Source of the DNA: a virus
Lineage: Duplodnaviria > Caudoviricetes
DNA length: 24,995 nt
Reading direction: 5' to 3' (one strand)
Virus record (IMG/VR): IMGVR_UViG_3300027819_000281
Coordinates: 1-24,995 of that record
Positions 1,536 through 24,995 of the stretch are shown here, piece after piece. Position 1 is the stretch's first letter; every line of letters starts with the position of its first letter. The notes below the pieces were generated by a model, which was not told the origin of the DNA, made no database searches, and worked only from the letters and a program-made list of their open reading frames with translations. A program made the position numbers and the translations under genes.

Positions 1536-1701
1536 AAAAACATTAGATATAACTATATTAAAAACAATAAAATTTCCAGAATATGTTTTAGAAAAATGGT
1601 GTTCTGGTTGTAAAGTTGAATTTATTTCTGATAATGATTATGATAAAAAGAAGGTTTTTATTCATAATTTATTAAAGGAAATAGAATGCAAAGAGTATTA
1701 G
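1507..1701 (+). CDS. hypothetical protein (64 aa, MILTAIIKFEK...)
   Basis: 3' part of the 1372..1701 ORF; ATG at 1507 minimises overlap with the preceding ORF. Confidence 0.5.
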   Translation: MILTAIIKFEKTLDITILKTIKFPEYVLEKWCSGCKVEFISDNDYDKKKVFIHNLLKEIECKEY

Positions 1702-2621
1702 TAACAGGAGGAGCTGGATTTTTAGGCAGCGTATTAGTAGAAGAATTATTAAAAAAAGATTATATAGTAACAGTAATAGATAATTTTTTATATCGACAAA
1801 CATCTTTATTAAATTTATGTCACAATAAAAATCTAAAACTTATAAAGGGTGATGTTAGAGATATAGAGTTAATGTCAAATTTAATACCAGATGCTGATGT
1901 TATTATACCACTGGCTGCTATTGTTGGTATGCCTGCCTGTAATAGAAATCCAGATTTAGCAACAGAAGTTAATTATGAAGCTATAAAATTTATAGCACAA
2001 AATAAATCAAATAATCAATTATTATTATATCCTAACACTAATTCGGGTTATGGTATAGGTGAAAATAATATATATTGCACAGAAGAAACAAAATTAAGTC
2101 CAGTTTCTTTATATGGTAAAACAAAAGTAGAAGCAGAAAAAGAAGTTTTATCTATAGAGAATTCTATGGTTTATAGACTTGCTACGGTTTTTGGAATGAG
2201 TTCTAGACCAAGACTTGATTTATTAGTAAATGAATTTGTTTACAAAGCTTTTAATGATGGTTATATTGTATTATATGAATCACACTATAAAAGAAATTAT
2301 ATTCATATTAGAGATGTAGCTGCTGGGTTTATTTGGGCAATAGAAAATTGGGATAAAGTTAATGGAAATGTATTTAATTTAGGTTTGTCAGATGCAAATC
2401 TTTCTAAATTAGAATTATGTCTTAAAATTAAAGAATTTTTACCAAATTTTCACATAGATTTAGCAGAAGTATCAAAAGATCCAGATCAAAGAAATTATAT
2501 TGTATCAAATGAAAAAATAGAATCTAAAGGATTTAAAGCTAAAATTTCTATTGAAGATGGTATAGAAGAATTATTAAAAGCATATCAAATATTAAATATA
2601 AATCAATATAGCAATTTATAA
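1686..2621 (+). CDS. NAD(P)-dependent NDP-sugar epimerase/dehydratase/reductase (extended SDR)
   Basis: TGGAGFLG Rossmann motif, LAAIVG, YGKTK (YxxxK), RLATVFG, RNYIHIRDVA. Confidence 0.93.
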   Translation: MQRVLVTGGAGFLGSVLVEELLKKDYIVTVIDNFLYRQTSLLNLCHNKNLKLIKGDVRDIELMSNLIPDADVIIPLAAIVGMPACNRNPDLATEVNYEAIKFIAQNKSNNQLLLYPNTNSGYGIGENNIYCTEETKLSPVSLYGKTKVEAEKEVLSIENSMVYRLATVFGMSSRPRLDLLVNEFVYKAFNDGYIVLYESHYKRNYIHIRDVAAGFIWAIENWDKVNGNVFNLGLSDANLSKLELCLKIKEFLPNFHIDLAEVSKDPDQRNYIVSNEKIESKGFKAKISIEDGIEELLKAYQILNINQYSNL

Positions 2622-2641
2622 AGATATAACAAAATGGAAAT

Positions 2642-2947
2642 ATGATACATCGTAACATAGATAATACAGAGCGTTTAGTTTTTTATCAAATGAGAGAAGA
2701 TTATATAAGAGTTAATAGTCAAAATAGACATTCAGATATTCCATATTTTGATATATATTATCCTAGTAAAGAATTTCCTATTGGTAAAGAAAATGAAGAC
2801 AAATTTTGTGTTGTAGAGATTGGTGGTGAAAATTATCATTATTTTAATATATTAGATGAATGTATTATTTATGTATTTAAAGTATTTAATGAATATTTAC
2901 AGAAAATAGAATATTTTACTAAAGAAAGTAAAGAAAATGAAATTTAA
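2642..2947 (+). CDS. hypothetical protein (101 aa)
   Basis: ORF between SDR and PLP enzyme, overlapping next start; no motif. Confidence 0.65.
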   Translation: MIHRNIDNTERLVFYQMREDYIRVNSQNRHSDIPYFDIYYPSKEFPIGKENEDKFCVVEIGGENYHYFNILDECIIYVFKVFNEYLQKIEYFTKESKENEI

Positions 2948-4133
2948 ACAACCAAAATATCCATTAGCATACGACACAATAGATAAATCAGATATAAACG
3001 CTCTTTGTGAGTGGCTTCGAAAAGGTGAGAGGCTTTCAAAGGGCGATCTTACAATAGAGTTTGAAAAACAATGGGCTAAATTTATAGGAACAAAATATTC
3101 AGTTTTTGTAAATTCAGGTTCATCTGCTAATTTTTTAATGGCATTGGCTTTATTATATTCTGAAAAACTAAAAAATAAAAAAGTTATAGTACCATCAGTT
3201 GGCTGGGTGACTACTGTTGCACCGTTTATGCAATTGGGATTTGAACCAATTATGTGTGGAGCTAATTCTTCTAATTTTGGATTAGAATTAGGTGAATTAG
3301 AATTTTTGTGTAAAAAACATAGACCAGCTATTGTTATTGCTGTAAATGTATTAGGTTTTAGTAATAATATTGCTTATTTAAGAACATTACAAAAAAGATA
3401 TGGATTTTGTTTATTAGAAGATTCTTGCGCAGCTCTTGGTTCAGAATATTATTCTCCTATTTCAAATGAACATGGTTATAAAGTTGGTTCACTGTCTGAC
3501 ATGTCTTCATTTTCATTTTATTTTGGACATCAACTTTCAACAATTGAGGGTGGGATGGTAAACACAAACGATGATGAATTATATCATTTAATGTTAATGT
3601 TAAGAAGCCATGGTTGGGGTAAAGATTTACCCAGAGGAGAGTATAATAATTTAATTGCAAAATATAACATAGATGATTTTCATTCTCCATTTACATTTTT
3701 TGTACCTGGTATGAATTTAAGATCTACAGATTTACAAGCATTTTTAGGTTTAAGACAAATAGAAAAAGCAAATTTTGTATCAAATAAAAGAAACGACAAT
3801 CATAGATTATATTATAAATTATTATCTGATTATTTTAAAATGCAATATTATACACCAGATGATATGTTTGTTAGTTCTATAAGTATAGGAGTTTTAGCTA
3901 ATAGTATAGAACATAGAAAAAAAATTGTAGAAAAATTAGTTGAAAATGATATTGAAACAAGAGTGTTTAGTGCAGGAAATTTAGGTAGACATCCATTTTG
4001 GGTAAATAAATATGGTGAATTTAGAGATGTTATTAGTGATAGAATACATGATACTGGATTTTTTTTACCAAATTATCCAACAATGACAGAAGAAGATATA
4101 GAATTTATCTGTAATATAGTAAAATCAGCTTAA
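2937..4133 (+). CDS. DegT/DnrJ-fold PLP enzyme, ColD-type NDP-4-keto-6-deoxyhexose 3-dehydratase
   Basis: VNSGSSAN, LEDSCAALG, SFSFYFGHQLSTIEGGMV (His at the position of the usual Schiff-base Lys), LRSHGWGKDLP, FxFFVPGMNLR; no Fe-S Cys cluster of E1/DdhC. Confidence 0.88.
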   Translation: MKFKQPKYPLAYDTIDKSDINALCEWLRKGERLSKGDLTIEFEKQWAKFIGTKYSVFVNSGSSANFLMALALLYSEKLKNKKVIVPSVGWVTTVAPFMQLGFEPIMCGANSSNFGLELGELEFLCKKHRPAIVIAVNVLGFSNNIAYLRTLQKRYGFCLLEDSCAALGSEYYSPISNEHGYKVGSLSDMSSFSFYFGHQLSTIEGGMVNTNDDELYHLMLMLRSHGWGKDLPRGEYNNLIAKYNIDDFHSPFTFFVPGMNLRSTDLQAFLGLRQIEKANFVSNKRNDNHRLYYKLLSDYFKMQYYTPDDMFVSSISIGVLANSIEHRKKIVEKLVENDIETRVFSAGNLGRHPFWVNKYGEFRDVISDRIHDTGFFLPNYPTMTEEDIEFICNIVKSA

Positions 4134-4136
4134 AAT

Positions 4137-4841
4137 ATGATATCAAAACAAGAACTTATAGATTTTGAAAAAGATGTAGAACAAATTTATTTTGCAGGTG
4201 GTATAAAAGCACCAATACATTTGTCGTCTGGAAATGAAGACCAGTTAATTGAAATATTTAAAAATATAAAAGATACTGATTGGGTGTTTTCTACATGGAG
4301 AAGTCATTATCATGCTTTACTTCATAATATACCAAAAGAAAAAATTAAACAACAGATATTAGATGGTAATAGTATTACATTATGTTTTCCAGAGCATAAT
4401 TTTTACACATCAGCAATAGTTGGCGGCATTATACCAATAGCCTTAGGTGTAGCTGTAAGTATAAAATTGAAAGAAATAAAAAGAAAAAAACAAATTAATT
4501 TATTACAAGATGCAATTGCTATTAATGAAGATTTAAAAAATAAAATTAATGAAGATTTAAATTATTTTTTATCTATTAAAGATGAACAAGTTTACTGTTT
4601 TATTGGTGATATGACTTTTAATACTGGTATATTTAAAGAATCATATGAATATGCAATAAATAATAATTTACCAATTACATTTGTTTTAGAAGACAATCAA
4701 TATAGTGTAGGGACACCAACAACTGAAGCTCAATTTTCATTAAATAAAAATAAATATTTAGATGGCAAAACTAGATTAATACAGTATTCTTATAACAACA
4801 AATATCCTCACAGTGGTATTGGAACTTTTGTGGCATTTTGA
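4137..4841 (+). CDS. ThDP-dependent enzyme, E1-alpha-like (PP-binding) subunit, short
   Basis: PIHLSSGNE, STWRSHYHAL, SAIVGG, ThDP motif GDMTFNTG...VLEDNQYSV; 234 aa including an insertion. Confidence 0.88.
   Translation: MISKQELIDFEKDVEQIYFAGGIKAPIHLSSGNEDQLIEIFKNIKDTDWVFSTWRSHYHALLHNIPKEKIKQQILDGNSITLCFPEHNFYTSAIVGGIIPIALGVAVSIKLKEIKRKKQINLLQDAIAINEDLKNKINEDLNYFLSIKDEQVYCFIGDMTFNTGIFKESYEYAINNNLPITFVLEDNQYSVGTPTTEAQFSLNKNKYLDGKTRLIQYSYNNKYPHSGIGTFVAF
4521..4561. repeat. 17-bp direct repeat (ATTAATGAAGATTTAAA x2, period 24) inside E1-alpha gene
   Basis: Copies at 4521-4537 and 4545-4561 encode INEDL twice. Confidence 0.85.
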
Positions 4842-4843
4842 TT

Positions 4844-5077
4844 ATGAATAAATACGATAAATTTACAATTGAATTTTATAAATATTTAAGACTTCAAGCA
4901 CAATATTTAAGAATTGGACAAGCATTGATGAATTTTCTTTTTATTTTTGATAAAGAAGAATATGAAAAAATTACATCTGCTCATTATTATGATAAAACAA
5001 ATGTTGACTGTTATTATTTAGATAATTTAATACCTAATACATTAGAACATTTACAAAAAGTTTGGAAAGATCAATGA
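4844..5077 (+). CDS. hypothetical phage protein (RIGQALMN motif)
   Basis: ORF between alpha and beta subunits; its TGA overlaps the beta ATG (ATGA); alternative TTG start at 4838. Confidence 0.7.
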   Translation: MNKYDKFTIEFYKYLRLQAQYLRIGQALMNFLFIFDKEEYEKITSAHYYDKTNVDCYYLDNLIPNTLEHLQKVWKDQ

Positions 5078-5604
5078 AATATTTTGATGAAATTAAAAAA
5101 TCAATGGAGTGGCTTGCTGAAAAAGGAGATACAATATTTCTCGGACAAGCAGTTTCATTTCCAGGAACTGTATTGACAAAAACTTTAAAAGATATAAACG
5201 ATAATAAAAAAATAGAAATGCCAGTTGCTGAAAATATGCAAATGGGAATTTCTATAGGCATGTCATTAAATGGATTTATACCAGTTACAATATATCCAAG
5301 ATTTGATTTTCTAATATTAGCTGCAGATCAATTGGTTAACCATTTAGATAAATTACCTGCAATTTCACAATATAAAAAGATTCCTAAATTAATTATTAGA
5401 ACTACAGTAGGTTCTAAAATACCATTACACCCAGGGCACCAACATTGTAATGATTATACAGATGCTTTTAAATTATTATTACCAACAATTAATGTTGTAA
5501 AGTTAAATGAATCAGAACAAATATTTGAAGAATATAAAAAAGCATATTTTAGTATAAAAAGTACTTTAATAGTTGAAATAATGGATTATTATAATTTAAA
5601 ATAA
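5074..5604 (+). CDS. ThDP-dependent enzyme, E1-beta/transketolase pyrimidine-binding subunit (no C-terminal domain)
   Basis: EMPVAENMQMGISIGMSLNG, DFLILAADQLVNHLDK, LHPGHQH; ATG at 5074 (ATGA overlap); only 176 aa. Confidence 0.87.
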   Translation: MKYFDEIKKSMEWLAEKGDTIFLGQAVSFPGTVLTKTLKDINDNKKIEMPVAENMQMGISIGMSLNGFIPVTIYPRFDFLILAADQLVNHLDKLPAISQYKKIPKLIIRTTVGSKIPLHPGHQHCNDYTDAFKLLLPTINVVKLNESEQIFEEYKKAYFSIKSTLIVEIMDYYNLK

Positions 5605-5605
5605 T

Positions 5606-6148
5606 ATGTTTACATTTAACGCATCTGCAGCACATGTAAAAGATATATTAAATTTTGAAGGTGTTTATCAATTTACACCTGGCAGATATTGTGATAATAG
5701 AGGAGAAAATGTTTTTACATTTCAAAAAGATATGTATGAACAATTACTTGGTGTAGAATTTGTAAAAGATGAAATATCAATATCAAAAAGAAATGTTATT
5801 AGAGGACTTCATGGTGACAATAAAACTGGTAAGTTAATACAAGTTTTATATGGTGAAGTTTTTTTTGTAGTTGTTGATTATAGAAAAGATAGTAAAAATT
5901 ATTTACAACATAGAACGTTTATATTAAATTCAAATAATAGATTACAAATATATATCCCACCAAATTTTCTAAATGGTCATATGTGTTTATCTGAAGAATG
6001 TGTTTTTTCATATAAAATGACACAATATTATTTTGGTATTGAAGATCAATATTCAATAAAATATGATGATAAAACTTTAAATATAAAATGGCCATTGGAT
6101 ATAAAACCAATTTTATCAAATAGAGATTTAGAAGCTAAAAATATATGA
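5606..6148 (+). CDS. rmlC: RmlC-family NDP-4-keto-6-deoxysugar 3,5-epimerase (cupin)
   Basis: DNRG, NVIRGLHGD, GKLI, VVVDYR, IPPNFLNGH, SYK, LNIKWP, ILSNRD. Confidence 0.88.
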   Translation: MFTFNASAAHVKDILNFEGVYQFTPGRYCDNRGENVFTFQKDMYEQLLGVEFVKDEISISKRNVIRGLHGDNKTGKLIQVLYGEVFFVVVDYRKDSKNYLQHRTFILNSNNRLQIYIPPNFLNGHMCLSEECVFSYKMTQYYFGIEDQYSIKYDDKTLNIKWPLDIKPILSNRDLEAKNI

Positions 6149-6309
6149 ATTATTTTTTTGGCTCTTTATTGTGTTTTTTGTTAAATGAACATAAATTTTT
6201 TGGATTTGATAAGCTTTATTTTAATAAAGAAGATAAATTTTTTTCTTTAACTATATGTTATAGATGCAATAAAATCAATAAAATAAAAGAATATGAACCA
6301 AACAAGTAA
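6145..6309 (+). CDS. small C/H metal-binding phage protein (54 aa; DUF1660-like pattern)
   Basis: Not in ORF track. ATGA overlap with rmlC stop; MNYFFGSLLCFLLNEHKF...ICYRCNK has a C-x5-H...CxxC pattern. Confidence 0.6.
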   Translation: MNYFFGSLLCFLLNEHKFFGFDKLYFNKEDKFFSLTICYRCNKINKIKEYEPNK

Positions 6310-7291
6310 ATATAACTTTAATATATATTTAGAACAAATTAAGAAATTAAATATTCTTGTTATTGGTGATATAATGATAGATAAGTGGGAATATTTTAAA
6401 TCTGTTAGATTGTCTCAAGAAGCACCAGTGCCAATTGTAATACCAGAAAAAAAAGAAGAATATGTATTAGGTGGTGCTGGTAATGTTGCAAAAAATTTAG
6501 ATTTATTAGGCGCAAATGTGTATTTATTTTCATTAATAGGTAATGATAAATATTCTGATTTATTAATTAATGATTTAATAAAAAAACAATCTAATATTAA
6601 ATTTCATTTTGTGTCTGATTCAAGAGTTAATACTATAAAGCAGAGGTTGATAGTAGATAATCAACATTTTTTAAGAATAGATAGTGAAAATACTAAAGAT
6701 ATTTCTGGCTATGTTTACAATGAATTTATTAAAAATATAAATAATATTTTTAAATTGGAAAAATTTGATGCTGTTATTTTACAAGATTATAATAAGGGTC
6801 TTTTAAGTGATAATGCAGTAAGCTTTATAATTAATAAATGTATAGCAAATAATATTAAAGTATATATTGATCCTAAAAAAATAAGATATTTTGAGGGTGC
6901 ATGGTTATTAAAACCTAATAAAAAAGAATTCTTTGAATTAACCAATATAGATATAAATAAAAATAATTATGATAAATATTCAATTGGTGTATATGATTGG
7001 ATGCATGTAAAAAATGTTAATAATTTATTGATAACTTTATCAGAAGATGGTATGGTTTTTTATGGTAGTAATGGTAATATTACATATTTTAATGAAAAAT
7101 TTATTTTTGATAATACTGTTGATGTTACTGGTGCTGGTGATATTGTTATAGCTTTATATACTGCATTAGATTTATTAAAAAATGTTTCTGAATATGAAAA
7201 ATTATATTATACATCTTTAGCTTCTCAAACAGCAATAACAAAGCGTGGTACATCAATCTTTTCGTTAAATGAAATTTCAAAATATATTTAA
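6293..7291 (+). CDS. rfaE1: PfkB-family sugar kinase, HldE/RfaE domain I type (D-glycero-D-manno-heptose-7-phosphate kinase)
   Basis: ILVIGDIMID, RLSQEAPVPIV, LGGAGNVAKNL, LRID, DYNKGLL, DPK, KPNKKE, DVTGAGD; no fused adenylyltransferase domain. Confidence 0.88.
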   Translation: MNQTSKYNFNIYLEQIKKLNILVIGDIMIDKWEYFKSVRLSQEAPVPIVIPEKKEEYVLGGAGNVAKNLDLLGANVYLFSLIGNDKYSDLLINDLIKKQSNIKFHFVSDSRVNTIKQRLIVDNQHFLRIDSENTKDISGYVYNEFIKNINNIFKLEKFDAVILQDYNKGLLSDNAVSFIINKCIANNIKVYIDPKKIRYFEGAWLLKPNKKEFFELTNIDINKNNYDKYSIGVYDWMHVKNVNNLLITLSEDGMVFYGSNGNITYFNEKFIFDNTVDVTGAGDIVIALYTALDLLKNVSEYEKLYYTSLASQTAITKRGTSIFSLNEISKYI

Positions 7292-16194: not shown

Positions 16195-16340
16195 TGAAAA
16201 AAGAAAATATTATATTGACACGAGAAGAATTTATTTGTTTAATAATGGAAAATTTTAATGAAAATGCTAAAATATTAGATTTTAAAATTATAGGAAAATA
16301 TAAACATTTAACAACAAAACTAACACCAAGAAAAAAATGA
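16194..16340 (+). CDS. small hypothetical protein (48 aa)
   Basis: Not in ORF track: TAATG overlap at start and ATGA overlap at end; MKKENIILTREEF...TPRKK. Confidence 0.6.
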   Translation: MKKENIILTREEFICLIMENFNENAKILDFKIIGKYKHLTTKLTPRKK

Positions 16341-16777
16341 TAATATCAACTGATAGACTTGATATTTGGATATTCCATAAAAAATATCCAATCTGTATAA
16401 CAACAAACGGATATGTTAAAAATAATACTGGTGAGTGTGTAATGGGAAGAGGAATAGCTTTAGAAGCTAAAATAAAATTTCCAAAATTATCAAAAGAATT
16501 AGGTTTTCAAATAACAAAATATGGGAATAATGTTTTTTACTTTAAAGATTATGATTTATTTTCTTTTCCTGTTAAACATAATTGGTGGGAAAAAGCAGAT
16601 TTAAAATTAATAGAAAAAAGTTGTATTGAATTAGTTAATTTCTGTAATAATAGTAAAATTGACAAATGTTTTTTACCAAAAGTTGGATGTGGTAATGGTC
16701 AATTAAATTGGAAAGATGTAAAACCTGTTTTAGAGTTTATTTTAGATGATAGATTTTTTATTATAGATAAAGGATAG
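16337..16777 (+). CDS. macrodomain protein, DarG/TARG1-like ADP-ribosylhydrolase
   Basis: ITTNG...VMGRGIA, SFPVKHNWWEKADL, LPKVGCGNGQLNW. Confidence 0.85.
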   Translation: MIISTDRLDIWIFHKKYPICITTNGYVKNNTGECVMGRGIALEAKIKFPKLSKELGFQITKYGNNVFYFKDYDLFSFPVKHNWWEKADLKLIEKSCIELVNFCNNSKIDKCFLPKVGCGNGQLNWKDVKPVLEFILDDRFFIIDKG

Positions 16778-16779
16778 TT

Positions 16780-17241
16780 ATGAATTGGAATGAATATATG
16801 TTCAATCTTGTTGATGCTATATCTTTAAAATCAAAAGATAATTCTAATAAAGTTGGCTGTGTTATTGTTGGAGATAATTATGAAATATTATCTACTGGTT
16901 TCAATGGTTTTCCAATAGATGTAGAAGAAAAAGAAAATAGATTTGAAAGACCATTAAAATATTTTTATACAGAGCATGCAGAAAGAAATGCAATATATTT
17001 AGCAGCAAGAAGAGGAACACCACTCACTAATAGTAGAATATATTTAAAGTGGTTCCCATGTGCTGAATGTGCAAGAGCTATTATACAATCTGGTATTAAA
17101 GAAATATTTATTGATGGTAAATCATATAATCCAGATGTTATTTCAGAAAGAGATAAAAGATGGGAAGAAAGTTTTACCCAAGCAAAACTAATGTTATTAG
17201 AAGCAAACATATCAATAAAAATAATTAAAGGAGAAAATTAG
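16780..17241 (+). CDS. dCMP deaminase
   Basis: KSKD...KVGCVIV, STGFNGFP, HAERNAI, PCAECARAIIQSGIK. Confidence 0.92.
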   Translation: MNWNEYMFNLVDAISLKSKDNSNKVGCVIVGDNYEILSTGFNGFPIDVEEKENRFERPLKYFYTEHAERNAIYLAARRGTPLTNSRIYLKWFPCAECARAIIQSGIKEIFIDGKSYNPDVISERDKRWEESFTQAKLMLLEANISIKIIKGEN

Positions 17242-20415: not shown

Positions 20416-21474
20416 ATGAGTAGAATACAGCATAGCAAAGATTTTAATATATGGCAAGAATTTTTTAATAAAAAGAAACATTTAAATGATTATGAGATTT
20501 CAAAATTTGCAGTTGAAAAATTTGGTGGTAGTAGACAAACTTGGACAAGTAGATTTGAAAGTATAAGACAATTATCAAAAAATAATGAACAATTATTACC
20601 TAAAAATAAATTACAAGAAGAACATGAAAAAGCAGATAATGCTTTTCTAACATTTATAGGAAAAGATTATCCATATATACAACCAAAAAAGAATTATAGT
20701 AAAAAAATTATAAATGAAAAAATTATAAATGTTTCTGACCCACACGAACCATATTCATTTCAACCTGTTTGGGATGATATATATAAAAATCATCATGATG
20801 CAGCTCATATACACGTAAATGGTGACATTGCAGATTTTTATTCAAAAAGTAGATTTAAGAAAACAGTTCATGAAGAATTTAGTAATGAATTAAAAGTTAT
20901 ATTTGAACGTCTAGAATGGTTATCGACTAATTGGAAAAAAATTACTTTAATTAGAGGCAATCATGATAATAGAGTTGAAAAATTAATGGCAAGCCTTGTA
21001 AATTCTGATATGTTATTTTTAACAAAAACAGATCTTCTTAGTTATCTATGTGCTTTTTTTGATAATATAGAATTAGTTGGTGAAAGAATAACAAGCACTG
21101 ATGGAACAGTGGCTGATATAGATTTTATTTGGCAATGTGGTGATATAATTTTTACTCATATTGAAAGAAGTCAAAAACAAAGTAGTGGTTTATTAGAAAC
21201 AATTTCTAATCAAATGCATAGATGGAGTAAGATGTTTAATCTTAAACCCTATAGAGTTATAATGCAGGGCCACAATCACAGATGTACTTTTGACACTAAT
21301 GGTGCAGAATATCTTTATATATGTCCAATGGCAGCATGTTTAACTACAAACGGATTGAAATATGCATTATCCCCTTCACTAAACGGAGTTCCACCTATAA
21401 CAGGTTATATTGAGATATATCAAAAAGATGGTATAACTGATGTTAATAAAACAAGAATTAAAATATTTGAATAA
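20416..21474 (+). CDS. calcineurin-like metallophosphoesterase with N-terminal HTH-like extension
   Basis: SDPHEP (DxH), NGDIAD (GDxxD), RGNHDNR, FTH, GHNH. Confidence 0.85.
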   Translation: MSRIQHSKDFNIWQEFFNKKKHLNDYEISKFAVEKFGGSRQTWTSRFESIRQLSKNNEQLLPKNKLQEEHEKADNAFLTFIGKDYPYIQPKKNYSKKIINEKIINVSDPHEPYSFQPVWDDIYKNHHDAAHIHVNGDIADFYSKSRFKKTVHEEFSNELKVIFERLEWLSTNWKKITLIRGNHDNRVEKLMASLVNSDMLFLTKTDLLSYLCAFFDNIELVGERITSTDGTVADIDFIWQCGDIIFTHIERSQKQSSGLLETISNQMHRWSKMFNLKPYRVIMQGHNHRCTFDTNGAEYLYICPMAACLTTNGLKYALSPSLNGVPPITGYIEIYQKDGITDVNKTRIKIFE

Positions 21475-21486
21475 GAAAGATAAGTT

Positions 21487-21711
21487 ATGATAGAAAAATA
21501 TATTCATCATGGAAAAGAAGTTGCAGTTGTTTCTGAAGTAAAAGGAAAACATAGAAATCACTGTTTATGTTTTCTAGGCTGTATTTATTTTAAACCTAAT
21601 ACAGCAGAAAATTGTGAAATAGCTCAATCAAACTTTGATTTATGTGTTAAATATAACTTAGTAACACCAGTTTATGAATGCAGTAAATTTGAGCAAAAAT
21701 TAACACCCTAA
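21487..21711 (+). CDS. Cys-rich small protein (74 aa)
   Basis: HCLCFLGC...NCEIA...LC...YEC, six Cys. Confidence 0.75.
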   Translation: MIEKYIHHGKEVAVVSEVKGKHRNHCLCFLGCIYFKPNTAENCEIAQSNFDLCVKYNLVTPVYECSKFEQKLTP

Positions 21712-21736
21712 AATGTTAATGTTTTAGGGTGTTTTT
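21702..21736 (+). terminator. intrinsic terminator
   Basis: AACACCCTAAAA / TTTTAGGGTGTT 12-bp stem followed by T tract, overlapping the stop of the Cys-rich gene. Confidence 0.85.
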
Positions 21737-21850: not shown

Positions 21851-22771
21851 ATGAAAAATTATATTACAGGTGGGGGAGTAGCTGGATTAGTATCTGCATT
21901 TTATAATAAAGATTATAAAATGATAACAGATAAAATAGGTGGTTGGCAAAATTTAAATAAATTTCAATTAGGTCCAAGATTACTTGAAGTTAATAATGCT
22001 ACAATTTCTTTTATGAATAAATTAGGGTTTTCTAATATTAATACAAAAGAAATTCATATTGGATATATGTATGAAGATGATGTAATAAGATCTTGGCCAA
22101 CAGATATTTTTAAAATAAAATATGCTTATAAAACAAGAGAACTTGAAGAAGGACAAATTCATAATTCTATTCTTTCATCTGGTAAAAAAAGTTTTATAGT
22201 TTTTGATATTGATTATGATTTAATATTAAAAAGATTAGAAGAATTAGTTTTAGATAGAATTTTTATGGGTAAAATTATAAAAATAGATACAGATAAATGC
22301 CTTATCAATTATAAAGACGGAAATTTTGATGTAACATCAGAATATGATAATTTAATAAATACATTACCAGCAACTTTATTTCAAAAACTATCAAATCTTA
22401 TAGATCTTGAAGAACATGACTTTACAGCTTTTCATACTACATTTTTTAAATGTGATTATAATGATTATTTAAGAAAAATAAAAAATGAATTAAATTTAGA
22501 TTATATTTATTCAATTTCTTCTACACATTGGCATAGATGTAACTTTTTTGATCATTATGTTGTTTTTGAAGTTAAGGGTAAAACAGATATATTAATGGAT
22601 AATTATTCTGTATTAGATAAAGTAACCTTACCGTTTGCTCAAATAAAATTTTCATATAATGATTGTAATACTACAAAACATAATATAAAACACATTGGAA
22701 GATTTGCGCAGTGGAACCACTCTATAAAAATGGAACAATTAATAGAAAGATTTGAAAAACAAAATGGATAG
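21851..22771 (+). CDS. FAD-dependent oxidoreductase, UDP-galactopyranose mutase/HemY-like fold
   Basis: ITGGGVAGL (GxGxxG), IGG, GPR, YDNLINTLP, C-terminal HIGRFAQWNH. Confidence 0.78.
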   Translation: MKNYITGGGVAGLVSAFYNKDYKMITDKIGGWQNLNKFQLGPRLLEVNNATISFMNKLGFSNINTKEIHIGYMYEDDVIRSWPTDIFKIKYAYKTRELEEGQIHNSILSSGKKSFIVFDIDYDLILKRLEELVLDRIFMGKIIKIDTDKCLINYKDGNFDVTSEYDNLINTLPATLFQKLSNLIDLEEHDFTAFHTTFFKCDYNDYLRKIKNELNLDYIYSISSTHWHRCNFFDHYVVFEVKGKTDILMDNYSVLDKVTLPFAQIKFSYNDCNTTKHNIKHIGRFAQWNHSIKMEQLIERFEKQNG

Positions 22772-23675
22772 ACTTAAAAGAATATTTGATATACAAAAAA
22801 ACTTTACAAATAAATATCATGAATATCAAAATATTGATGTAGATAATTTAGAACAAAAACAACAACAAACTAAAGAGTATATTTTGTGTCTCATTAAAGA
22901 ATCTACTGAAATATTGGATGAAATAAATTGGAAGCAACACAAACTCAATAAACAAAAAATATTAGAAGATAATATAATAGAAGAGTCAATTGATTCATTT
23001 AAATATTTATTGAATATAATCCAATTATGGAATTTTGATGATAATAAATTTTTTGATGAATTTGAAAGAAAATCTATTGTAGTAGCTCAAAAATTTGAGC
23101 AAGAAAAATTATTAAAATTTTCAAATAAAGAAAAAGTTGCTATATTAGATATTGATGGTATTTTATATCCTTGGCCAAAAGAGTTTTTAAGATTTTGTCT
23201 TTATTATAATATTAATTATAAATTTAAAAATTTATATGATTTTGAATCTTCAATTGATTTATCTGAAAGATTGAAAATAAAAGATGAATATAGAAAAAGT
23301 GGTATTAAAGCAACTGCAAATGTCATCGATGGAGCAGTTGAGTTTACGAATAAATTAAAAGAACTTGGATATACTATAATACTTGTTACAGCAAGACCCT
23401 ATCAAAAATATCAAAGAATATATGCTGATACATTACAATGGTTGAATAATCATAAGATACAGTTTGATGCTATTATATGGGAAGAACAAAAAGAAAAATA
23501 TCTTATAGAGAAATTTCCAAATGCTAAATTCGTTGTTGAAGATGATATTGAAAATGCTTTAATTTTATCAAGAAATGGTTTTAAAGTATATTTAAAAAAT
23601 ACTATTTATAATGAATCAAAAGCAACAACAGAAAACATTATAAGATTTAATAATTTTAATGAAATTGAATTATGA
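22764..23675 (+). CDS. fusion: all-alpha dNTP pyrophosphatase (dimeric dUTPase/MazG/dCTPase-like) + HAD 5'(3')-deoxyribonucleotidase
   Basis: N-domain LIKESTEILDEINWKQHK...IIEESIDSFKY; C-domain LDIDGILY (DxD), LVTARP, K, VEDD. ATG at 22764 preferred over TTG at 22752. Confidence 0.82.
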   Translation: MDRLKRIFDIQKNFTNKYHEYQNIDVDNLEQKQQQTKEYILCLIKESTEILDEINWKQHKLNKQKILEDNIIEESIDSFKYLLNIIQLWNFDDNKFFDEFERKSIVVAQKFEQEKLLKFSNKEKVAILDIDGILYPWPKEFLRFCLYYNINYKFKNLYDFESSIDLSERLKIKDEYRKSGIKATANVIDGAVEFTNKLKELGYTIILVTARPYQKYQRIYADTLQWLNNHKIQFDAIIWEEQKEKYLIEKFPNAKFVVEDDIENALILSRNGFKVYLKNTIYNESKATTENIIRFNNFNEIEL

Positions 23676-24097
23676 AAGAATCTATAATAATATTAGATGG
23701 GATTGATAGAAGTGGAAAAACATCGCTTAAAAATGAATTAATAAAACAGTCAAATGGGAAATGTTTAGTAATTGATAGAGCTTTTATATCACAAATAGTT
23801 TATAATAGAATATTTAAAAGAGAAATAAATGAAACTTTTTTTAAAAACCAAGCAACTTATTGTTTTCGTTTGGGATATAAGTTTGTATATTTATATGCAA
23901 ATAAAAATGATATAAAATATAGAGTAAGAAATACTAATGAAAAAGATATTAGTGAAAAAGATATAAACACACATAAAAAAATATTTGACAGTGTAATAAA
24001 AGAATTTGAAAAACTTAATATAAAAATATATAAATACAATACTAGTTTATATACTGTTGATGGACTTGTAAAGAAGATTTTTAATAACATTGAGTAA
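23672..24097 (+). CDS. deoxynucleoside monophosphate (thymidylate-like) kinase
   Basis: P-loop LDGIDRSGKTS and DRAFISQIVY motif; ATGA overlap. Confidence 0.82.
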   Translation: MKESIIILDGIDRSGKTSLKNELIKQSNGKCLVIDRAFISQIVYNRIFKREINETFFKNQATYCFRLGYKFVYLYANKNDIKYRVRNTNEKDISEKDINTHKKIFDSVIKEFEKLNIKIYKYNTSLYTVDGLVKKIFNNIE

Positions 24098-24103
24098 ATT
24101 TAT

Positions 24104-24995
24104 ATGAAAGCAATTTTTATTACTGGTGAAAGTGGAACAATACCTATGGCTATTCAGAGAATAGTTGTAGATAAACATCTCACTGCTATTGTAAATTCTC
24201 AATTAAGTGACAACTTTGATTATGATAAGTATAAAACACACCAAAGTTTTAAAATAAGAAAACCTGAAATAGATTTTCTTAATAGAGAATTATTATTTAA
24301 AATATTTAAAGAAAAATTTGATAGTTATAATGAAATAACTCATATTATTCATTCTGGTGCTTATGTTGGAACTGATTTTTGTGCAGCAAATCCATTAGAT
24401 GCTATAAGAACAAATATTGAAGGTACTAAAAATATAGTAGATATCTGTAACACTTTTAATATTAAGCTTATTTATTTTTCTACAACTGCAATTTTTGACC
24501 CAAAAGATTATTCTGAAGATAAGCCAATAACAGAAAACACAAAAATTAATCCTCAAACATTATATGGTATTACTAAATATGCTGGAGAAATGATAGTTGA
24601 AAAAGAGTGTAAAGCTTTATTTACTATTGTTAGGCCAGTTTTTGGATTCAGCGATTATCCAGATGATTTACACAGTGCATTAACAAAAATTATTTATAAT
24701 ATAATATATAATTTAAAAAATAACACTAATATTAAATTAGATGTTTTGTTGAATAGAAATATAAATAAATCATATACTAGAGTTGAGAATATAGCTGATT
24801 GTGTATTAAACATAATAAGAAATGATTATTTTTTAAACGTTTTTAATATTGGTATAAATTATAAAGAATCTGTTGATTGGTATTATTTATTTGAAGTAAT
24901 TAAAGATGAAATTCTAGTTTTTCAAGAACATTTTGAAAATTTACAAAATCTAGAAAACATATATTCAAACATAGTTTTTTATCATAAAAAAGATT
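24104..24995 (+). CDS. NAD(P)-dependent NDP-sugar epimerase/reductase (extended SDR), truncated by window end
   Basis: Not in ORF track. MKAIFITGESGTIP, HSGAYVG, TNIEGTKN, STTAIFD, YGITK, FNIG; open to base 24995. Confidence 0.88.
   Translation, partial: MKAIFITGESGTIPMAIQRIVVDKHLTAIVNSQLSDNFDYDKYKTHQSFKIRKPEIDFLNRELLFKIFKEKFDSYNEITHIIHSGAYVGTDFCAANPLDAIRTNIEGTKNIVDICNTFNIKLIYFSTTAIFDPKDYSEDKPITENTKINPQTLYGITKYAGEMIVEKECKALFTIVRPVFGFSDYPDDLHSALTKIIYNIIYNLKNNTNIKLDVLLNRNINKSYTRVENIADCVLNIIRNDYFLNVFNIGINYKESVDWYYLFEVIKDEILVFQEHFENLQNLENIYSNIVFYHKKD

Follow-up and report, generated by a model that had tools for sequence, protein, structure and literature searches.

What does a short phage operon make when enzymes of the nucleotide pool are encoded side by side with enzymes of the sugar type? 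The question is raised by four tightly coupled genes at positions 21851 to 24995 of IMG/VR record IMGVR_UViG_3300027819_000281 (Duplodnaviria; Caudoviricetes), of which positions 1 to 24,995 were analyzed; this whole 24,995-nucleotide stretch is referred to as the window. A sequence-only reading had taken the four genes for a DNA base-modification operon. Comparison with relatives indicated a cassette that is conserved among phages and that includes a divergent ThyX-like gene. We propose, as a reading evenly poised between right and wrong, that the four genes are the front half of this cassette, which would place a sugar-derived chain on uracil C5, with ThyX alkylating deoxyuridine monophosphate (dUMP) by means of a sugar aldehyde supplied by the flavoprotein. 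The support consists of gene content, gene order, folds, motif losses and co-occurrence.

The cassette and its conserved partners

The four genes lie on the plus strand behind a terminator, as had been claimed, and their place and tight coupling were borne out:

21702..21733, plus strand (also hairpin-like on the minus strand): intrinsic-terminator-like hairpin of 14 pairs with a T tail, dividing the upstream genes from the cassette
21851..22771, plus strand: ORF1, small FAD-binding flavoprotein with a UDP-galactopyranose mutase (UGM)/amine-oxidase-like fold, 306 amino acids (aa), motifs GxGxxG and GRFAQW
22764..23675, plus strand: ORF2, fusion of an all-alpha deoxynucleoside triphosphate (dNTP) pyrophosphatase with a haloacid dehalogenase-type (HAD) phosphatase, 303 aa, motifs DIDG, TAR and EDD
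23672..24097, plus strand: ORF3, deoxynucleoside monophosphate (dNMP) kinase, 141 aa, P-loop GIDRSGKT and DRA, thymidylate kinase match (E 1e-7)
24104..24995, plus strand: ORF4, RmlD-like NAD(P)H reductase of the short-chain dehydrogenase/reductase (SDR) type, best match RmlD_sub_bind (E 3e-22), 297 aa up to the window end

The length of ORF2 was counted from the ATG that overlaps the ORF1 stop; ORF3 starts within the ORF2 stop via ATGA, and ORF4 follows after 6 bases and is cut by the window end. Three terminator-like sites occur in the window, compared to 0.6 ± 0.7 in shuffled sequences. The pyrophosphatase part of ORF2 resembles dUTPase_2 and phrog_173 weakly (E 0.004 and 1e-4), next to the HAD part, and a PDB search gave no assignment of its substrate.

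The flavoprotein served as anchor for 40 viral and 70 metagenome loci, and the ThyX-like gene for a further 64 viral loci; genes were labeled with family hidden Markov models (HMMs). Flavoprotein loci were retained if they reached 10 kb or more downstream (48 of 110; 62 short ones were dropped), and ThyX-anchored loci if they reached 9 kb or more upstream (44 of 64; five of the 20 dropped still show the flavoprotein). A divergent ThyX occurred in all 48 flavoprotein loci (47 without L042, which was assigned by eye), and the flavoprotein occurred in all 44 ThyX-anchored loci. The 48 flavoprotein loci also encoded the HAD domain (47), pyrophosphatase (47), kinase (47), a minimal thymidylate synthase (TS) homologue (44), the polymerase DnaE (42), the SDR (37), a uracil-DNA-glycosylase-like (UDG-like) domain (18) and a GT-B-like glycosyltransferase (5). 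Among 22 clusters formed at 70% identity, ThyX was present in 22, the TS in 19, the SDR in 18 and the glycosyltransferase-like gene in two. The TS HMM matched 38 of the 44 ThyX-anchored loci; by eye, the kinase fusions of L157 and L159, and probably that of their relative L172, also bear a TS-like tail.

The SDR is missing from four of the 22 clusters, and in two lineages an aldo-keto reductase and a radical SAM gene stand at its position, which fits a reductase role and weakens the earlier view of the SDR as a maker of the sugar. A furanose-type nucleoside diphosphate (NDP) sugar handed to a transferase, as had also been suggested, fared little better: the GT-B-like gene inside the cassette is restricted to two clusters, namely the lineages whose flavoproteins come nearest to that of the window. 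A two-sequence profile of this protein matched no PDB sequence, leaving the GT-B-like fold as the supported assignment. It may resemble T4 beta-glucosyltransferase. A family-4-type glycosyltransferase lies further downstream, past other genes, in 13 of the 44 ThyX-anchored loci.

The ThyX partner shares with canonical ThyX (PF02511) the fold and the equivalents of Gln75, Arg78, Arg80, Arg90, Arg147 and Arg174, but it has lost His53 and the RHR histidine, carries Gly for Ser88 in the cassette clade, and often occurs as two complementary paralogues. His53 was absent at its motif in 39 of 39 single-chain cassette-type rows and the RHR histidine in 38 of them; one further row had no readable motif and was dropped, and four script-flagged rows read E-T, E-V or E-P at the motif. 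Canonical ThyX from the same loci retained both histidines in 11 of 11 rows. His53 is reported to stack on the folate pteridine (PMC11940539), and ThyX is reported to methylate dUMP from free formaldehyde via a flavin carbinolamine (PMC8316439; mechanism also PMC8989533). The ThyX-like proteins of uncultured phages formed a supported clade (42 rows, SH-aLRT 100) in a quick tree with long branches. Many of the genes are split (L021:18045-19572, L004:19605-20897 and many others): paralogue 'a' keeps G-x-R-D-N and S-W-Q-x-x-R, and paralogue 'b' keeps Q-H-x-R-x-R and R-R-L-x-F-C-E-E. These complementary active-site halves suggest an obligate heterotetramer.

The flavoprotein family comprised 636 representatives at 50% identity and gave no match in Pfam or PHROG. 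A profile of 149 sequences had a fungal UGM as its best PDB match (E 3e-8), and the AlphaFold model (pLDDT 96) likewise matched UGMs best (TM 0.67-0.70 by query, 4dsh/3ute), with amine oxidases scoring just below. Y220, G283 and R284 were invariant and R229 nearly so; the Tyr, Arg and GR-x-x-W motifs align with eukaryotic-type UGM (PDB 4dsh, 3uka), and the model has the FAD-binding GR2 fold of UGM. However, by target the TM score was 0.43-0.52 (targets of 360-510 aa against 306 aa), short of the full-length UGM architecture; the best UGM matches measure 465-510 aa, identity is 8-11%, and a nearly invariant G41-P42-R43 is found in place of the G-x-H histidine loop of UGM. Judged from the secondary structure of the model, the absent part would be the helical UDP-binding domain. 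UGM itself forms a flavin-N5 sugar iminium. Since the three motifs align with UGM while the protein has some 150-200 residues fewer and a G-P-R loop, it plausibly acts like half of a UGM, yet falls outside the UGM family. The UGM likeness noted earlier thus holds for fold and GR-x-x-W motif, and not for length or the mutase histidine. Among cultured phages, tblastn found no match to any of three queries (the window flavoprotein, a marine one and a marine ThyX-a), so these lineages are joined by profile comparison only. In the closest relative the flavoprotein frame (L004:10001-10900) is open for 308 aa with no ATG, GTG or TTG before codon 73, and it therefore probably uses a rare start codon.

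A TS-like gene had been predicted just past the window. Metagenome locus L043 matches the window at 100% identity for 13,145 bases, continues 706 bases beyond it and contains such a gene directly after the completed SDR:

L043:12254-13282: complete SDR, 342 aa
L043:13282-13791: minimal TS homologue, 169-172 aa, outside the window

Two contigs are joined at L043 13121-13145, on the strength of their 25-base overlap and the open SDR frame. Sequencing runs labeled as groundwater metagenome carry the window/L043 stretch without differences and may be its source data; no reads extended past L043, runs X3 and X4 giving parts only. With the TS, the locus combines a dNTP pyrophosphatase, a dNMP kinase and a TS-type enzyme, as in the pre-replicative pyrimidine replacement of T4, SPO1 and SP-15.

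The minimal TS family (160-190 aa; profile of 164 positions versus 246 aa of T4 gp42) had T4 dCMP hydroxymethylase as its best PDB match (E 1e-8). From an alignment of 72 rows, three short sequences, one canonical ThyA and one false alignment were left out. In the 67 full-length rows N177D was universal, and D169N occurred in 42, the L043 copy included; the remaining 25 have D, E, H or S at position 169. N177D has been tied to dCMP and D169N to 5-hydroxy-dCMP synthesis (PMC13326640), and the L043 copy carries Cys146, D169N and N177D, the signature of a 5-hydroxy-dCMP synthase of the RB69 gp48 type. This copy reads Gly-Arg at the Arg166-Ser167 phosphate site, where Arg166 is kept in 66 of 67 rows, and so it is possibly impaired. 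The same reading is found in contigs X1 and X2, which may be source data; the phosphate site may have shifted, the gene may have decayed, or the assembly may be wrong here. Judged by its residues, the TS is of the dCMP type and probably serves a cytosine branch apart from the uracil one, in the simplest case through 5-hydroxy-dCMP. Two minimal TS paralogues share a single locus in L072, L096, L171 and L101, the last of which also doubles the SDR and the kinase.

Further genes vary around the cassette. The UDG-like domain occurs on its own or as a fusion with DnaE or with the kinase (L041:12046-15888, L024:12114-13025, L157:12957 onward), and in some actinophages a pyrimidine-dimer-glycosylase-like gene takes its place (L180:11214-11801). 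A small protein, c6 (100-135 aa, motif FYE-x-P-x-A, e.g. L021:12270-12650), is encoded in 37 of the 48 flavoprotein loci and not in the window; a 120-aa copy had no Pfam or PHROG match, and its ESM Atlas scores were 0.82 or less.

Cultured phages with related genes

Homologous genes were found in cultured phages, some of which have DNA known to be modified. In the Pbunaviruses F8 and 14-1, a flavoenzyme (HH probability 96.5%), a His53-less ThyX, a HAD fusion and DnaE lie within approximately 8 kb; in F8 the flavoprotein is gp65 and the ThyX-like protein gp59. A search with the ThyX-like protein returned 192 Pseudomonas phage records. In F8 and 14-1 about a quarter of T, in TG context, is replaced by nucleosides of 362 and 390 Da, which were described as consistent with a tetrose-alcohol and a cyclic pentose derivative; the paper names no genes for them and states that known modification genes are missing from this phage family (PMC12191111). 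Wifceviruses are reported to withstand restriction-modification systems without known protection (PMC11990801). These Pbunaviruses thus share with the window clade a homologous flavoenzyme, the His53-less ThyX, HAD and a phage DnaE, but no minimal TS was found in them, no SDR or dNMP kinase is annotated in the region, and flavoprotein identity is about 18%. Among 24 gene pairs compared between F8 and 14-1, no gene gained or lost could account for the difference between 362 and 390 Da.

Vibrio phage VA-RY-3 has a flavoenzyme (97.9% HH probability) in a row of adjacent flavoprotein, ThyX, HAD and sulfotransferase genes; its sulfotransferase-like gene (L182:9378-10133) lies inside the cassette, which predicts a sulfated base. 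The HAD domain search led to actinophages, in which an oxidoreductase (HH probability 95.5% to the flavoprotein profile) occurs in 126 records and stood together with a ThyX-like gene and DnaE in six of six regions read. Outside subscription journals, our literature search found no paper that assigns the flavoprotein-ThyX pair to a modification; PMC11385102 and PMC12390725 list or mention these genes.

A second group of phages has the divergent ThyX with a different companion. SP-15 is reported to make 5-(4',5'-dihydroxypentyl)uracil, which is C-linked, before replication and to encode two Thy1 proteins (PMC5977210). The divergent one, gp130, lacks His53 and RHR and is encoded beside the FabG-like gp129 and the nucleoside-deoxyribosyltransferase-like gp127; kinase gp134 and a HAD protein match the cassette HMMs (E 1.6e-8 and 1.8e-9). 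A ribose-labeling study of the SP-15 base is said to exist. Homologues of gp130 occurred in 10 records, among them Carin-5 and YerA41, whose T linkers are reported at 330 and 346 Da (PMC12686479, PMC13697223). All three phages encode a nucleoside-deoxyribosyltransferase-like protein and gave no flavoprotein match, and F8, SirHarley and genome G001 show the reverse. Nucleotide N-glycosidases, which release sugar phosphates, are members of the nucleoside-deoxyribosyltransferase-like family. The cassette and this group agree in a second Thy1 of divergent type, near which SP-15 also encodes an SDR, a dNMP kinase and a HAD protein, and in a pre-replicative C5 chain, the latter only as proposed for the cassette; they differ in that the SP-15 group has an N-glycosidase-like gene in place of a detectable flavoprotein homologue and PolA instead of DnaE. 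In print, gp130, which belongs to a different ThyX branch, has been proposed as a hydroxymethyl-dUMP synthase (PMC5977210, PMC12686479). SP-15 gp114 (L193:9784-10521), near the polymerase, is annotated as a 7-cyano-7-deazaguanine synthase.

A proposed reaction and the readings set against it

In the reaction we propose, the flavoprotein would supply an open-chain sugar, a task that an N-glycosidase may perform in SP-15-type phages. The ThyX without a folate site, predicted to lie further downstream here, would use this sugar instead of formaldehyde to alkylate dUMP. The SDR may adjust the oxidation state of the chain, a methyltransferase, sulfotransferase or glycosyltransferase may tailor it, and the HAD domain could strip phosphate from the chain or from the canonical dNMP. 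The pyrophosphatase would reduce the competing dNTP, and the kinase would pass the product on to the phage DnaE for incorporation; the minimal TS would handle dCMP separately in this clade. Mass arithmetic agrees with such products. Deoxyuridine plus aldehyde minus O comes to 362 with a pentose, as in F8, to 346 with a deoxypentose, as in YerA41, and to 330 with a dideoxypentose, as in SP-15/Carin-5; deoxyuridine plus hexose minus water comes to 390. That a folate-independent ThyX family in general uses sugar aldehydes, provided by a truncated mutase-like flavoprotein or a nucleotide N-glycosidase, and builds C-C linked polyol chains on uracil is a tentative extension that we would lean against.

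Several observations weigh against the proposal. No ThyX-like gene is seen in the window or L043, because the contig stops 60 bases past the TS-like gene; DnaE is likewise not seen in this truncated genome. The TG context of the F8 modification favors a step after replication. Modified nucleosides were measured in F8 and 14-1, distant relatives rather than this phage or its clade, to which they would apply by analogy only. The 362-Da mass fits an O-linked tetritol of 5-hydroxymethyldeoxyuridine (hmdU) equally well, and F8 and 14-1 differ by 28 Da though their flavoproteins are 97% and their ThyX proteins 94% identical. The kinase HMM had no match among the eight Pbunavirus proteins tested, and the flavoprotein profile picks up distant members weakly (F8, E 2.6e-4). 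The exchange of flavoprotein for N-glycosidase is a pattern of three genomes against three, in which SP-15, Carin-5 and YerA41 are related. Furthermore, the ThyX proteins of the cassettes do not form a single clade, actinophage rows branching apart in the quick tree, and a search with SP-15 gp130 returned no Pbunavirus or actinophage record; for both reasons the link may be convergence.

The proposal also competes with cytosine glycosylation as the main job of the cassette. Here the TS would form 5-hydroxy-dCMP, the kinase and a dCTPase would bring it into DNA, the flavoprotein and SDR would make an NDP-sugar, and the GT-B-like enzyme would add it. The TS findings speak for this: its T4 dCMP hydroxymethylase match, its presence in 44 of 48 loci, the universal N177D, and D169N, the published 5-hydroxy-dCMP-synthase signature, in this genome. 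The TS is moreover often fused to the kinase in this clade, which suggests that the kinase serves cytosine. RB69, DLP3 and RL38J1, which have glycosylated 5-hydroxycytosine, share with the cassette a dNMP kinase, sugar-type enzymes and a TS bearing N177D and, for the most part, D169N; RL38J1 encodes a genuine UGM within a cluster of this kind (PMC13326640). The cassette differs from them in its TS of 160-190 aa, its ThyX partner, a flavoprotein that is not a full UGM, and the lack of an adjacent DNA glycosyltransferase in most relatives; the two lineages closest to the window flavoprotein do have the GT-B-like gene. Glycosylation of cytosine leaves the ThyX partner unexplained, has to cope with the variable residue 169 and the Gly-Arg of this genome's TS, and does not account for flavoproteins that occur without any TS: the minimal-TS profile, which matched in genomes G001-G003, found nothing in F8, 14-1, VA-RY-3, SirHarley, LuckyLeo, SP-15 or Carin-5, the first five of which have the flavoprotein. 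As the main job of the cassette we consider it unlikely, if a serious candidate. It remains a good reading for the lineages nearest the window and is compatible with the uracil chemistry, and a parallel cytosine branch is likely in this genome.

A post-replicative route, in which the ThyX-like protein makes hydroxymethyl-dUMP and the flavoprotein acts on hydroxymethyluracil in DNA at particular dinucleotides, transferring or remodeling a sugar there, appears quite improbable. The TG specificity and the replacement of only about a quarter of T in F8 point to a post-replicative step. The masses agree too, since hmdU plus 104 gives 362 (a tetritol ether) and hmdU plus 132 gives 390 (a pentoside), and the length that the flavoprotein lacks relative to UGM could open its site to DNA. 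On the other hand, this route requires that the remaining T of F8 be restored or incorporated alongside, and no enzyme for this was identified; a ThyX without the folate-stacking histidine hardly suits the role of a folate-dependent hydroxymethylase, and the C-C linked chain of SP-15 does not fit. Ordinary nucleotide supply, by a divergent but normal dTMP synthase with sanitizing enzymes and a flavin reductase, is very improbable: dUTPase, kinase and ThyX are common in phages, and the divergent ThyX is the sole one seen in the F8 and actinophage regions read, but canonical ThyX co-occurs in the same loci (the 11 rows above), 13 of 48 loci encode a stand-alone trimeric dUTPase after the fusion, F8 and 14-1 DNA is measurably modified, and methyltransferase, sulfotransferase and radical-SAM genes enter and leave the cassette between relatives.

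Genome context and meaning

The window (GC 25.3%) is a fragment of a large phage; Pfam and PHROG family searches identified gp32-like and RecA-like proteins, a 5'-3' exonuclease, DnaB, GroEL, a class II ribonucleotide reductase and, upstream and outside the operon, a dCMP deaminase:

16780..17241, plus strand: dCMP deaminase

This enzyme is the likely dUMP supplier; a dCMP deaminase gene was found near the cassette in 10 of 22 ThyX-anchored clusters. The region of nucleotide metabolism also encodes a Macro-domain protein (16337-16777) and a metallophosphoesterase with a long N-terminal extension (20416-21474). A second sugar operon (1686-7291) comprises an NDP-sugar epimerase, a DegT-type aminotransferase, a split thiamine diphosphate-dependent E1 alpha/beta pair, an RmlC epimerase and a PfkB kinase, and its product could be a branched or an amino sugar used to glycosylate the virion or DNA.

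Replacement of pyrimidines in phage DNA is known; what is new here are candidate genes and a possibly new reaction for it, which can be tested in E. coli and in cultured phages. Few Pseudomonas phages see more therapeutic use than the Pbunaviruses, and their modified T was found only in 2025, with its genes unassigned. The SP-15 base has been unexplained since the 1970s, the origin of its pentyl chain having been open for fifty years. If the tentative extension to a whole folate-independent ThyX family is true, one chemistry would explain the SP-15 base, the linkers of YerA41 and Carin-5 and the new Pbunavirus bases, the clade of the window would modify both pyrimidines from a single operon, and over a hundred cultured actinophages would carry modified DNA that has gone unreported. 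If the proposal for the cassette is right, flavin-carbinolamine chemistry would extend from one-carbon transfer to the C-alkylation by sugars, and the small flavoprotein together with a His53-less ThyX would serve as a genomic marker of hidden DNA modification.

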